A stretch of DNA of 5,660 nucleotides, from positions 1-5,660 of IMG/VR virus record IMGVR_UViG_3300045988_000102, one strand, 5' to 3'. Shown one piece after another: positions 2,504 to 5,660 of the stretch (positions within the stretch are counted from its first letter, which is position 1; each line of letters opens with the position of its first letter). This stretch comes from a virus. Below the pieces are notes generated by a model. That model saw nothing but the letters and a program-made list of their open reading frames with translations, searched no databases and was not told the DNA's origin. Both the position numbers and the translations under genes were made by a program.

Positions 2504-3349
2504 ATGTCAATACTAGGAACAATCGGAACAGCCGGAAAAGCGATAGGGGGCTGGCTTGCAAATAATCCACAAGTCGTAACAAGCGCACTGACACTGGCGG
2601 GAAAAGGACTATCAAGCCAATTCGGACAGAAGTCAGACAGCCAAAGCAGCGGATGGAATCAAAGCCAAAGCCAAGGCGCTGGCACAAGCTCGTCAAGCAG
2701 CGAAAGTGGCACAAACGACAAACAAATCATGGAATACCTAGATAGGTTCTATGGATGGCAAGGCGGGCAAAATGCTTTTCAAAGCAAAACAAACCGACAA
2801 AATATGCTTATGCAGATGGGCTACAACACACTAGGAGCTATCCAGCAAGGCGTATATAACGCAATAGAACGGAACACGGCAATGCAGTACAACAGCGCAG
2901 AAGCGCTTGCAAACAGGAACTTCCAAGAGCGCATGAGCAGCACAGCATACCAGAGAGCCGTAGAGGATATGCGGAAAGCCGGACTAAATCCGATTCTAGC
3001 ATACGCGCAAGGCGGTGCAAGCACACCGGGAGGATCAGGAGCAACAATCACAGGCGCGAGCATGGGAATGCCATCAGCAAGCGCACTAGGAGTATCTGCA
3101 ATGAGTGGCAATGTGCCGAACAGCTATTACAGCCGGTCAGAAAGTCAAGCACAATGGTATCAGCTTGCAGAAGCCGTGGGCAGTCAGCTAAGCACAAGCC
3201 ACAGCAGCCCAACAGCACTTGTGAACGACCTATTAAAAACGTACAACGCCATGGAAAAGACGGAAGCTACAGTACCAAGCATGGGCGGTGGAAAAGCCGG
3301 CGGTGGAGCAGGCAGAAAAAAGAAAGGACAGGGAGGTGGAGGATACTAA
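2504..3349 (+). CDS. VP2: Minor capsid / DNA pilot protein VP2 (281 aa)
   Basis: Gly-rich hydrophobic N-terminus MSILGTIGTAGKAIGGWLA. S/Q-rich low-complexity linker. Conserved block ERMSSTAYQRAVEDMRKAGLNPILAY, typical of gokushovirus VP2. Gly/Lys-rich C-terminal tail. An in-frame TAA immediately precedes the ATG, so no upstream start is possible. Confidence 0.9.
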   Translation: MSILGTIGTAGKAIGGWLANNPQVVTSALTLAGKGLSSQFGQKSDSQSSGWNQSQSQGAGTSSSSSESGTNDKQIMEYLDRFYGWQGGQNAFQSKTNRQNMLMQMGYNTLGAIQQGVYNAIERNTAMQYNSAEALANRNFQERMSSTAYQRAVEDMRKAGLNPILAYAQGGASTPGGSGATITGASMGMPSASALGVSAMSGNVPNSYYSRSESQAQWYQLAEAVGSQLSTSHSSPTALVNDLLKTYNAMEKTEATVPSMGGGKAGGGAGRKKKGQGGGGY

Positions 3350-4369
3350 ATGAGTTGTTACAAGCCATTAATAAGGCTGTACAACCCGAACAATAAAGAA
3401 GTAAGCGGGAGAGTATATTCACTCTCCCGCTATTCTCAGTTAGCAGGGAAACAGCTAAAATATGAAGATTTGATGTACAGAAAAGATGTCATGTTGATAC
3501 CATGCGGACAATGCATCGGATGTAGAATCAGACAGCGCGAGGACTGGACAACGCGCATAGAACTGGAAGCTAGAGATTATCCGAAAGAAGAAGTATGGTT
3601 TATTACACTAACCTATGATGACGAACACGTGCCGGGAATGATAGTCAAGACAGGCGAAATCATGCGAAAGGTTCAATACGTTTGGAAGCCGGGTGAAAAG
3701 CGTCCTGAAAGCGTCCAAACGTTGCTGTATACTGACGTTCAAAGATTCTTAAAACGTCTCAGGAAGGCTTACAGGGGCAAATTACGCTATTTCGTAGCGG
3801 GAGAATACGGAGAGCAGACAGCAAGACCGCATTACCACATGATACTGTATGGATGGCGACCGACAGACCTAGAGAATCTATACAAGATACACCACAACGG
3901 ATACTATACCAGTAAATGGCTAGTAGACCTATGGGGCATGGGTCAGATACAGATAGCGCAAGCAGTGCCGGAAACATATAGATACGTTGCAGGATATGTA
4001 ACCAAAAAAATGTATGAAATAGATGGAAAAAAAGAGAATGAATATTATGAACTAGGACAACAAAAGCCGTTCGCTTGTATGAGCCTTAAACCGGGTCTTG
4101 GAGATAACTATTACCAAAAAAACAAAACAAAAATCTGGAAACAAGGATACATCCAGTGTACAAACGGAAAACACGCACAAATACCGCGCTATTACGAAAA
4201 AATGATGGAAGCCGAAAACCCACAAAGATTGTGGAGAATTAAACAGAACAGACAAGCAGCAGCAATAGATGCAAACCGTAAAAGATACGAAAACACAGAC
4301 TTTGCAGAGCAATGTAAGACGAAAGAAAGAGTAATCAAAAAGCAGATGAAGAAGAGAGGGACACTTTAA
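3350..4369 (+). CDS. VP4: Replication initiator VP4 (HUH rolling-circle endonuclease, phiX174 A-protein family), 339 aa
   Basis: Motif I FITLTY. HUH motif PHYHMILY, with HYH encoded at 3830..3838. Double-tyrosine catalytic motif YVAGYVTKK (Tyr codons at 3983 and 3995), compare phiX174 YVAKYVNKK. Cys cluster CGQCIGC. Tandem GGAGG SD ends 7 nt before the ATG, and the ATG directly abuts the VP2 stop (TAAATG). Confidence 0.93.
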   Translation: MSCYKPLIRLYNPNNKEVSGRVYSLSRYSQLAGKQLKYEDLMYRKDVMLIPCGQCIGCRIRQREDWTTRIELEARDYPKEEVWFITLTYDDEHVPGMIVKTGEIMRKVQYVWKPGEKRPESVQTLLYTDVQRFLKRLRKAYRGKLRYFVAGEYGEQTARPHYHMILYGWRPTDLENLYKIHHNGYYTSKWLVDLWGMGQIQIAQAVPETYRYVAGYVTKKMYEIDGKKENEYYELGQQKPFACMSLKPGLGDNYYQKNKTKIWKQGYIQCTNGKHAQIPRYYEKMMEAENPQRLWRIKQNRQAAAIDANRKRYENTDFAEQCKTKERVIKKQMKKRGTL

Positions 4370-4387: not shown

Positions 4388-4430
4388 TAGCCCAGTACCT
4401 ATCAAGTAAAGGTACTGGGCTATTAGTTTA
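4388..4430 (+). terminator. Strong hairpin after VP4: likely the main transcription terminator, alternatively an ssDNA structural element
   Basis: Perfect 12-bp stem TAGCCCAGTACC (4388..4399) / GGTACTGGGCTA (4411..4422) with an 11-nt loop, followed by T-containing TTAGTTTAT. It begins 19 nt after the VP4 stop. Confidence 0.6.
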
Positions 4431-4484
4431 TCAAGCGTGCAAAAACGCTATTATATAACTTGTTGTAGCCGTAGTAGTAGGGAA

Positions 4485-4659
4485 TGTGGAAAAGTTGAAA
4501 AACAATAAAATTTAACGTTAAAGCGTAAATAAAAGAACAAAAAACATGTTGAAAATATTGTTAATAAATTGTTGAAATGTTGAAAGTTAGTCAAAATGAC
4601 GAAAAACATTGTGCAATATTTTGTGGAAAACCTGTTGAAACTGTTGAAACTGTTGAAAA
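4485..4659 (+). repeat. Array of eight same-orientation 9-mers TGT(T/G)GAAAN (iteron-like / DnaA-box-like)
   Basis: Copies: 4485..4493 TGTGGAAAA, 4547..4555 TGTTGAAAA, 4570..4578 TGTTGAAAT, 4578..4586 TGTTGAAAG, 4622..4630 TGTGGAAAA, 4633..4641 TGTTGAAAC, 4642..4650 TGTTGAAAC, 4651..4659 TGTTGAAAA. There is also a partial copy AGTTGAAAA at 4493..4501. All lie in a non-coding region. Confidence 0.85.
4632..4658 (+). repeat. Perfect tandem repeat (CTGTTGAAA) x3
   Basis: Read directly: 4632..4640, 4641..4649 and 4650..4658 are identical 9-mers with no spacer. Confidence 0.95.
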
Positions 4660-4733
4660 CGCGCAAGCGCGCAAGGAATGGATTTAGCCGAATTCCGCTG
4701 CGCTCCATACGGCAAGGCGCTAAAGCGCCATTC
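4660..4733 (+). promoter_or_regulatory. GC-rich structured island directly after the iterons (candidate origin or primosome-assembly element)
   Basis: Tandem CGCGCAAG x2 (4660..4675). Imperfect palindrome AGCcGAATTCcGCT (4686..4699). Hairpin GGCGC-TAAA-GCGCC (4716..4729). Alternative long-range pairing GAATGG (4676..4681) / CCATTC (4728..4733). The island stands out sharply from the flanking A-rich sequence. Confidence 0.45.
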
Positions 4734-4751
4734 AAAACAAAAGAAAAAAAT

Positions 4752-4780
4752 TTGACAACGCCAAAAAAGGATGGTAAAAT
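4752..4780 (+). promoter_or_regulatory. Near-consensus sigma70-type promoter with extended -10
   Basis: -35 TTGACA (4752..4757), 17-nt spacer, TGg extended -10 (4772..4774) and -10 TAAAAT (4775..4780). An A-tract at 4735..4750 resembles an UP element. The expected transcription start is near 4787. Confidence 0.6.
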
Positions 4781-4806
4781 CAAAAATAGAAAGCGAGGTG
4801 AACAGA

Positions 4807-5199
4807 ATGATAAAAAGCTATATCATGGACACAGACGCAAACGAAAAAGTTGGACAGCACTTCAAAGTAAAAGAATTTGCTTGTAAAGACGGTTCTCAAG
4901 TGGTATTCATAGACGACCATTTAGTATCAATTCTGGAAATCCTCAGAAATCAAATCGGAAAACCGGTACACATAAACAGCGGTTACAGAACACCGACAAG
5001 AAACAAAGAAGTAGGAGGTGCAAAATACAGCTATCACATGAGAGGTATGGCAGCTGACATCAGGGTAAACGGCATGAACGCAAAAGAAATTGCCAACAAA
5101 CTAAATGCAATTGTGTCGCCGGATGAATGCGGTATCATCGTATACAAAAGCTGGGTGCACTTAGACACTAGATACAAAAAATACAGAAAGGGGGTTTGA
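4807..5199 (+). CDS. Zinc D,D-/L,D-peptidase of the M15 type (Peptidase_M15_3-like, LAS fold), a candidate peptidoglycan hydrolase/endolysin. 130 aa from ATG 4807; the ORF is open from ATG 4771 (142 aa).
   Basis: Motifs FKVKEFACKDG, INSGYRTPTRNKEVGGAKYSYHMRGMAADI and WVHLDTR give an H-x6-D...H-x-D zinc-ligand pattern (numbering from ATG 4771: His89 codon 5035..5037, Asp96, His130). Start 4807 is preferred because AGGTGA (4796..4801) lies 5 nt upstream. ATG 4771 lies inside the predicted promoter and its only SD-like match (AAGGA) directly abuts the ATG, with no spacer. Confidence 0.8.
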   Translation: MIKSYIMDTDANEKVGQHFKVKEFACKDGSQVVFIDDHLVSILEILRNQIGKPVHINSGYRTPTRNKEVGGAKYSYHMRGMAADIRVNGMNAKEIANKLNAIVSPDECGIIVYKSWVHLDTRYKKYRKGV

Positions 5200-5321: not shown

Positions 5322-5546
5322 ATGATGAAATCATGGAACGTACGAGACCAGACCAGAGAAGCTCTTGAAGAGCTTCTAACACGCAAATACAAAGAGATAG
5401 ATGGCAACTACAGTATGATGAAAAAGGTCTCAAACATCAACGATGCAAAGAAGCTGCTAGATGAAATTTGGCAGATGAAGAGCTTTGCGAAAGCAATCGA
5501 AATAGAAATCATCAGAAGGGAGTACAGCGATGGCACAGCATCGTAA
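5322..5546 (+). CDS. Hypothetical 74-aa protein, charged and probably helical, no recognisable family
   Basis: SD AAAGGAG (5308..5314) lies 7 nt before the ATG. Same strand as, and packed against, its neighbours. The 3' end overlaps the J-like gene by 17 nt. Confidence 0.55.
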   Translation: MMKSWNVRDQTREALEELLTRKYKEIDGNYSMMKKVSNINDAKKLLDEIWQMKSFAKAIEIEIIRREYSDGTAS

Positions 5547-5652
5547 GAAGATGAACGGCGCAAAAGACCGCCGTATGTTCAACGTAACCGCACGCAAAAC
5601 CAAAACTATCAACCTCAGCCAAAAACCCATGCGTGGGGGCATCCGGCTGTAA
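5530..5652 (+). CDS. Small highly basic DNA-binding/packaging protein (phiX174 J / gokushovirus VP8 / SpV4 ORF8 analogue), 40 aa
   Basis: Hand translation gives MAQHRKKMNGAKDRRMFNVTARKTKTINLSQKPMRGGIRL, with 11 K/R against 1 acidic residue. SD AAGGGAG (5516..5522) lies 7 nt before the ATG. The C-terminal RGG-basic-hydrophobic ending resembles the SpV4 ORF8 tail as I recall it. Stop TAA at 5650..5652. Confidence 0.7.
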   Translation: MAQHRKKMNGAKDRRMFNVTARKTKTINLSQKPMRGGIRL

Positions 5653-5660
5653 AAAAAAAG
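5542..5660. repeat. Second copy of the terminal redundancy (identical to 1..119)
   Basis: Exact 119/119 identity read directly from the sequence. Confidence 0.95.

Follow-up and report, generated by a model that had tools for sequence, protein, structure and literature searches.

The 5,660-nucleotide sequence of IMG/VR record IMGVR_UViG_3300045988_000102 (hereafter the window, meaning this whole stretch) represents the complete circular genome of a gokushovirus, ~5,540 nt in length, bases 1-120 of which recur at 5541-5660. The ~400-nt intergenic region between its VP4/Rep and M15 peptidase endolysin genes holds an array of short direct repeats, and the question raised by this locus is which protein reads the repeats and on which form of the phage DNA. 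Comparison with related phages and with bacterial origins of replication leads us to propose that the array probably consists of ten co-oriented sites for the host initiator DnaA, set in a 212-nt miniature (4449-4660) of the dnaN-proximal half of the host chromosomal origin (oriC), and that it works on double-stranded replicative-form DNA. The borders of this element, referred to below as the cassette or 'mini-oriC', were taken from the limits of its inversions in related phages and from BLAST boundaries.

Box array and trio unit of the cassette

The motif TGTKGAAA is found nine times in the window, eight of the copies lying on the + strand within 4485-4658 (starts at 4485, 4547, 4570, 4578, 4622, 4633, 4642 and 4651). 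The expectation from shuffled sequences is 0.59 for the whole window, and none of 200 shuffles attains nine. GTTGAAA at 4494 represents a partial extra copy, and CTGTTGAAA forms 3.0 perfect tandem copies at 4632-4658 according to TRF. An earlier inspection of the window (the original prediction) had reported eight co-oriented full copies and one partial copy, with three perfect head-to-tail units; both observations are confirmed, and its view of a designed, non-coding binding array of DnaA-box character appears to be borne out. It had placed the array at 4485-4659, which is correct for the boxes, but the element begins at 4449; the segment that says most about function, 4449-4484, had been left outside.

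Read as DnaA boxes, the repeats lie on the minus strand. Box 1 (TTTTCCACA, 4485-4493) is followed at an 8-nt offset by its tandem partner, box 2 (TTTTCAAC(T), 4493-4501), and then, beyond a variable A/T-rich spacer (4502-4546), by boxes 3-6 at 4547-4586 (4547-4555, TTTTCAACA; 4559-4567; 4570-4578; 4578-4586). Boxes 7-10 occupy 4622-4659 (4622-4630, TTTTCCACA; 4633-4641; 4642-4650; 4651-4659, TTTTCAACA), the last three forming the perfect 9-nt tandem. The copy at 4559-4567 (TGTTAATAA), which brings the number of boxes to ten, is degenerate in the window and intact, as TGTTGAAAA, in relatives. The spacer at 4502-4546 has a low duplex stability, contains a different small palindrome in each relative and tracks the strand bias of the genome in its composition. 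Between the two downstream groups of boxes lies a conserved non-box segment (4589-4616) made up of the palindrome (C)GTCA-AAA-TGACG (4589-4601) and ATTGTGCAA (4608-4616); it is present in nearly all cassettes, including those of the inverted clade described below, where the AAA loop becomes TTA, and may be the site of a second factor.

The two TGTGGAAAA copies on the minus strand do match the relaxed consensus TTWTNCACA, as originally noted; by themselves these matches are not significant, as many being found in 36 of 200 shuffles, and the case for DnaA therefore rests on the host-specific motif presented in the next section. The six TGTTGAAA copies had been described as missing that consensus by one base, which is correct for two of them (4547 and 4651, TTTTCAACA), the other four differing at box position 1 as well. 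Judged by the origins of the presumed hosts, these copies are the main box variant of the host clade and not near-misses, a point that the original prediction missed, as it did the adjacent trio and AT-rich unit and the fact that the element is a cassette.

This adjacent unit forms the left end of the cassette, where an AT-rich tract, TAG-NNG-TAG-TAG-TAG, a 4-nt spacer and the two tandem boxes follow one another. The AT-rich end (4449-4465) is a predicted DNA-unwinding element, and the 20-mer at 4449-4468 is the second least stable duplex of the genome (-19.3 kcal/mol, against a mean of -25.9 and a standard deviation of 2.4 kcal/mol). It is conserved in all clades, and its position equals that of the AT/T-rich tract that comes after the trios in host oriCs. 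The trio run TAG CCG TAG TAG TAG (4466-4480, + strand) is equivalent to 3'-GAT-5' repeats; its second triplet varies (NNG) among relatives, many of which have five perfect TAGs, and the unit is kept in every clade, including phages at ~40% VP1 identity. TTG TTG at 4460-4465, directly past the trios, may represent extra degenerate trios. TAGTAGTAG occurs once in the window and at all in 3 of 200 shuffles, and the combination TAGTAGTAG-N4-TGTKGAAA in none of the 200. The spacer GGAA (4481-4484) between trios and first box varies in sequence, being G-rich in most relatives and CCCC in hosts. On the bottom strand, the phage unit reads TTTTCAAC-TTTTCCACA-TTCC-CTA CTA CTA CGG CTA CAA CAA G-TTATATAATA, or, parsed otherwise, TTTTCAAC-TTTTCCACA-TTCC-CTACTACTAC-GG-CTAC-AACAAG-TTATATAATA.

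The basal unwinding system of bacterial origins comprises a DnaA box with at most two mismatches to TTATCCACA or a species-specific box, an optional second tandem box (in 57% of origins), a box-trio spacer of 0-16 bp with a GC-rich gap of 4 bp on average, and three or more consecutive NAN trios of consensus 3'-GAT-5' followed by an AT-rich element (PMC8287927). In the cassette, box 1 has one mismatch to TTATCCACA, the E. coli consensus, and fits the host logo exactly; TTTTCAAC-TTTTCCACA at 4485-4501 provides a tandem like that of host loci L111 and L141; the spacer measures 4 bp; TAG TAG TAG at 4472-4480 and a further TAG at 4466-4468 stand in the same strand relation to the box as in hosts; and the AT-rich element at 4449-4468 is distal to the trios. 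What differs is the location, between VP4 and the M15 endolysin gene of a microvirus instead of between dnaA and dnaN. All sequence features of the oriC unwinding module are thus found in the cassette, which, lying off the chromosomal origin, would be classed as a viral mimic or derivative of the module and not as a member.

The closest parallels are B. subtilis incC (boxes 6/7) and C. difficile oriC2, with which the cassette shares the tandem boxes, the 4-nt spacer, three or more 3'-GAT-5' trios, the AT-rich tract and the relative orientation of these parts; in C. difficile, CACC-TACTACTATTACTACTA stands ahead of the unwinding element. A directional array of more boxes upstream, at a spacing of 9-11 bp, is another feature in common with bacterial oriCs. 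Full-text literature searches returned no paper joining "DnaA box" with microvirus and nothing relevant on DnaA with Microviridae or gokushoviruses, and the cassette appears to be a previously unreported viral version of a known module.

Host origins and their box dialect

When one genome of each prokaryotic species was scanned for three motif copies at 9-nt spacing, many contigs of Ruminococcus, Oscillospiraceae and Clostridia with arrays of 16-36 copies per kb were identified. In three of these (L104, 4464-5809; L141, 1152-2166; L111, 3042-3696), the array, of 21-33 boxes, occupies the gap between dnaA (TIGR00362, E about 1e-141) and dnaN (TIGR00663) and hence is oriC; six additional host loci are tied to dnaA and/or dnaN. 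Origins built from TTTTC(A/C)ACA are likewise seen in the metagenome-assembled genomes (MAGs) of L110, L116, L129, L133, L145 and L150. TTATCCACA is missing from the origins of L104, L141 and L111.

The motif and the architecture of the phage element are identical to those of host origins. Logos built from 103 host and 554 phage boxes match, both reading (T/c)TTTC(A/c)ACA, with an A:C ratio at position 6 of 85:15 in hosts and 86:14 in phages, and both have 9 and 11 nt as their modal start-to-start spacings. Boxes are directed at the trios in 86 of 100 cases in host oriCs and in all nine strict boxes of the phage, where inverted box pairs are absent. The 17-mer TTTTCAACTTTTCCACA formed by boxes 1 and 2 recurs in the L111 origin, and TTTTCAACTTTTCAACA precedes the trios of L141. 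Written from dnaA to dnaN, the origin ends read TTTTCCACA-G-TTTCAACA-CCCC-(CTA)5-AT/T-rich in L104, TTTTCAACA-G-TTTCAACA-CCCC-(CTA)5-AT/T-rich in L111 and TTTTCAAC-TTTTCAACA-GCCC-(CAA)5-AT-rich in L141, host oriCs having (CTA)3-6 where the phage has its trios. The phage cassette is nearly superimposable on this dnaN-proximal end. It differs from host oriCs in size (212 nt and 10 boxes, against 650-1350 nt and 26-37 boxes), in residing on a 5.5-kb single-stranded DNA (ssDNA) phage with its own rolling-circle initiator and away from dnaA and dnaN, in lacking a partner cluster upstream of dnaA, in its extra conserved palindrome and in occurring in either orientation. As a side observation, the (CAA)5 that replaces (CTA)n at the dnaN-proximal end of L141 (about 1262-1290) and L116 (about 2780) amounts to 5'-TTG-3' trios with a middle T, a breach of the published NAN rule.

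The DnaA proteins of these hosts depart from the norm in domain IV, where P423A/V, T435S and H439Y are found in 8 of 8 proteins examined; P423, T435 and H439 belong to a set of six residues reported to be base-specific and conserved elsewhere among Firmicutes and in E. coli. We infer from these data that TTTTC(A/C)ACA is the DnaA box of the Ruminococcus/Oscillospiraceae clade, and there are strong grounds for regarding DnaA as the protein that binds the phage array. The dialect looks undescribed, and consensus-based origin finders that use TTATCCACA would miss such origins. The resemblance further suggests that the phage host belongs to the Clostridia of Ruminococcus/Oscillospiraceae type.

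Not all clusters of this box in the host clade are origins. A syntenic cluster at L108 2680-3275 and L099 520-1115, with a DUF6512 gene on one side and a VTC-domain gene or SpoU methylase on the other, comprises ~26 boxes in mixed orientation (26:27), has no trios and may be a DnaA sink comparable to E. coli datA or the B. subtilis DnaA-box clusters. Its existence gives some weight to an explanation in which the boxes on the replicative form would only titrate DnaA, blocking or reprogramming host initiation and DnaA-regulated transcription while no phage origin fires. The phage cassette shares with such sinks a dense cluster of the same box outside the chromosomal origin (ten boxes within 175 nt), and ten boxes per genome multiplied by the copy number of the replicative form must sequester DnaA in any case. 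Sinks, however, require neither trios, spacer and AT-rich end nor a uniform box direction, all of which are conserved in the phages as much as the boxes or more. Because the host sink has boxes of mixed orientation and no trios, whereas the boxes of the phage all point one way and a conserved unwinding unit closes the array, the cassette appears akin to the origin type and unlike the sink type. We therefore rate pure titration as rather unlikely, although it would be the main rival should the trios prove dispensable.

A scan of viral contigs with the canonical unit TAGTAGTAG-N2-8-TGTGGATAA, admittedly a narrow test, gave 41 matches, about the order expected by chance by our own estimate, of which just one came from a microvirus and had a single box; the scan lends no support to the use of other box dialects by microviruses. 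Large IMG/VR 'viral' contigs (L278, L289 and L307, identical in sequence, and L288, L314 and L304) contain canonical units made of an AT-rich tract, TAGTAGTAG, GGGG/GGGC and TGTGGATAA-TGTGGATAA, with 6-9 boxes nearby. They may represent host origins within sequences called as proviruses, or else dsDNA phages or plasmids whose origins are oriC-like.

Spread, inversion and selection of the cassette

Intergenic DNA of the window matches 66 phage records in GenBank, many of which have little else in common with it. The common core of these matches, distant ones included, is query positions 80-291, corresponding to window 4449-4660, and the region bears no annotation in the GenBank relatives. Alignment of the intergenic regions of relatives, which the original prediction had proposed as a check, showed the motif to be conserved: among 80 loci with close VP4 relatives, nearly all that reach far enough have the array, six of them on the opposite strand. 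In these six, out of 69 genomes, the cassette is inverted with boxes and trios intact, the limits of the inverted segment recur (4449/4452 to 4659/4660) and the flanks stay in fixed orientation. A wider set of IMG/VR contigs yielded 96 microviruses with a full cassette, which runs in gene direction in 82 of them and is inverted in 14; VP4 identities span 34-95% in this set and VP1 identities 40-89%. The most distant clade has its cassette in the VP2-VP4 gap, in inverted orientation, the DNA being ~70% identical where the proteins are 36-46% identical. The cassette is independent of orientation and position. One close VP4 relative (L007 3520-6017, 91% identity), an 8.8-kb contig with large opposite-strand open reading frames (ORFs) after VP4, is devoid of the cassette; this contig looks chimeric or rearranged.

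Other identities of the cassette were considered and rejected. A minus-strand ORF (4451-4783, 110 aa) and a plus-strand ORF (4596-4886) overlap it, but no frame is open across 66 unique cassettes, the alignment of which displays 1-2-nt indels and three T-rich frames that are about equally open. Neither an Rfam match at E ≤ 1 nor a tRNA was found in the cassette, and its predicted fold equals that of shuffled sequences (z = -0.22), which disposes of a structured ssDNA or RNA element. A recent capture of host DNA or an assembly chimera is discounted by the motif-level nature of the BLAST likeness to host oriCs and by the retention of the cassette in >160 independent gokushovirus contigs and GenBank genomes.

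The breadth of this distribution bears on the first hypothesis of the original prediction, that of a VP4/Rep-binding iteron origin; in the rolling-circle form that we considered, the nick site might lie in the conserved AACTTG beside the trios. Direct repeats next to GC-rich hairpins do recall iteron origins, and AACTTG echoes the phiX174 origin core. Iterons, however, normally co-vary with their Rep, whereas the motif is invariant over VP4 proteins that are 34-95% identical and is the dominant repeat of host origins. AACTTG is itself not strictly conserved (TTACTTG, TAATTTG and ACTTTTTG are found in its place) and is better read as a trio extension, given the TTG-type trios of hosts L141 and L116. 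Rep iterons would also be expected in fixed orientation beside a nick-site hairpin; the cassette inverts and relocates to the VP2-VP4 gap, and its inversion in a Rep origin would switch the packaged strand. This hypothesis has become very hard to sustain, and we attach next to no probability to it.

The same mobility tells against an array of operators through which DnaA, which doubles as a transcription factor, or another host regulator such as Spo0A, whose half-site is similar, would control the promoter at 4752-4780 and couple expression of the lysis gene or VP4 to host physiology. The cassette lies ~90 nt upstream of this strong promoter-like site, and just upstream of VP4 in the distant clade, in line with such a role; the orientation, the distance and the downstream gene all vary between clades, however, the exact Spo0A box TGTCGAA is absent from the cassette and from the three host oriCs, and the trios and AT-rich end would be left unexplained. 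Operators of the adjacent promoter, the third hypothesis put forward originally, accordingly seem improbable to us. The Spo0A boxes of phi29-family phages, multiple copies of a host origin- or regulator-binding motif that tie the phage cycle to host physiology, are comparable in that a phage has many copies of a motif of this kind; the cassette differs from them in having no TGTCGAA and in displaying the architecture of origin unwinding instead of that of operator sites.

Comparison of the two orientation clades reveals what is under selection. Between the consensus sequences of the direct and inverted clades, the TAG run is identical at 15 of 15 positions and the box columns at 82 of 88, against 50 of 75 for the spacers. 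Read in cassette orientation, spacer composition shifts from A 45%/T 27% in the direct clade to A 24%/T 50% in the inverted one. Whichever way the cassette points, the spacers have drifted to the A-rich, T-poor bias of the genome + strand (A 37.6%, T 18.0%) while boxes and TAG run have stayed constant. Boxes and trios are therefore under purifying selection, and their constancy alongside drifting spacers argues for sequence-specific recognition of duplex DNA. This pattern indicates that the cassette would function on double-stranded DNA, and speaks against a function on the packaged strand.

The second of the original hypotheses, a DnaA-recruiting site, is affected by this result in one of its two parts. 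Recruitment of DnaA is favored, but an ssDNA site analogous to that of the ABC primosome, where DnaA on the incoming viral strand would nucleate a primosome for complementary-strand synthesis, is not. The packaged, coding-sense strand carries the DnaA-binding 5'-TAG-3' trio strand in 85-90% of genomes, which speaks for this scheme. Yet co-oriented boxes cannot produce a duplex box by folding back, inverted cassettes keep boxes and trios intact (in 14 of 96 and 6 of 69 genomes), and the spacers adapt to the strand of the genome and not to that of the cassette, all of which makes ssDNA-stage priming highly improbable. The A-site of the ABC primosome is a hairpin with one duplex box on ssDNA; the cassette has no such stable strand-specific hairpin, no inverted box pairs to form one and no fixed orientation.

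Mechanism, neighboring elements and implications

Initiation from host DnaA sites on the replicative form could proceed as follows. DnaA-ATP would dock on the boxes of the double-stranded replicative form, oligomerize directionally along them and then extend from the tandem pair onto the strand of TAG trios, so as to melt the AT-rich end at 4449-4468. Primase and the helicase loader of the host (in Firmicutes, DnaD/DnaB/DnaI-helicase) could enter at the melted end, resulting in DnaA-dependent initiation or priming of the replicative form beside rolling-circle synthesis driven by VP4. The parts of this scheme that we infer are the unwinding, the loading of helicase and what the phage gains, be it amplification of the replicative form or plasmid-like carriage. 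A bolder version, which we find possible but doubtful, is that the cassette of a widespread clade of gut gokushoviruses would be a captured functional mini-oriC that supports theta-style replication as a cell-cycle-coupled episome in Ruminococcus/Oscillospiraceae, with VP4 switching to the production of virion ssDNA, and that is exchanged between divergent phages as a host-specificity module.

Mobile elements that borrow host DnaA via boxes have precedents in plasmid and dsDNA-phage origins and in the ABC primosome A-site. P1 oriR, F, pSC101 and RK2 have one to few DnaA boxes together with iterons for their own Rep, which opens the origin. The phage cassette differs from these origins and from the A-site in having no separate Rep iterons and no ssDNA structure, and in including a trio unit.

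Several considerations weigh against DnaA-dependent initiation on this phage. We know of no description of DnaA-dependent replication in Microviridae, which encode their own rolling-circle initiator, and oriCs of the B. subtilis type usually also need the box cluster upstream of dnaA for autonomous replication. The AT-rich tract past the trios is short (~17-20 bp) and followed by a GC hairpin, and the palindrome at 4589-4601, which like ATTGTGCAA was not found in host oriCs, is not explained by a DnaA model. The attribution of TTTTC(A/C)ACA to DnaA is founded on location, abundance, architecture and the DnaA substitutions, and that of the host on origin mimicry. The latter conflicts with the binning into a Prevotella MAG of L124, a complete-looking microvirus contig of 5,840 nt that has the cassette and a VP1 of 49% identity; this binning is probably an artefact for a free phage contig.

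All genes of the phage are on the + strand: an ORF5-like gene (130-369), the VP3 scaffold (362-772), the VP1 capsid (769-2463), the VP2 pilot (2504-3349), VP4/Rep (3350-4369), the M15 peptidase endolysin (4771/4807-5199) and small ORFs with a basic ORF8/J-like peptide (5530-5652). Directly after the VP4 stop lies a perfect 13-bp hairpin (4388-4422; TAGCCCAGTACCT / AGGTACTGGGCTA, 9-nt loop) whose ssDNA folding is far above that of shuffles (z = -5.4) and whose orientation is unchanged where the cassette is inverted in relatives; it could serve as a terminator, minus-strand origin or Rep site. GC-rich palindromes flank the cassette on both sides (4435-4448 and 4660-4735). Relatives (L003-L082) have long alternating GCGCACGCGCGCG...CGCGCACGCGC palindromes upstream of the cassette, which are much reduced in the window genome, and a conserved segment, AAGGAATGGATT-AGCCGA..TCCGC..GGCAAGGCGCTAAAGCGCC, is found downstream of it. 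These elements around the cassette could bring about the inversions or contain the rolling-circle origin. The site at 4752-4780, upstream of the M15 endolysin gene, is a near-consensus sigma-70 promoter (TTGACA, 17 nt, TAAAAT, extended -10 TG) consistent with a host of Firmicutes type; it is the sole strong one, no promoter-like sites being found inside the cassette.

By matching phage box and trio modules to the oriC dialects of bacteria, an approach that may be of general use, hosts could be assigned from sequence to abundant gut microviruses whose hosts are essentially unknown. A by-product of the comparison is a divergent box dialect, TTTTC(A/C)ACA, coupled to P423A/T435S/H439Y in DnaA domain IV, and the 212-nt cassette would be a compact natural substrate for studies of trio-dependent unwinding. 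We know of no role for DnaA in the Microviridae, which are textbook rolling-circle replicons. If the proposed function of the cassette is true, replication in this family would include a second, host-initiator-dependent step, which could provide a mechanistic handle on the persistence of gokushoviruses in the gut.

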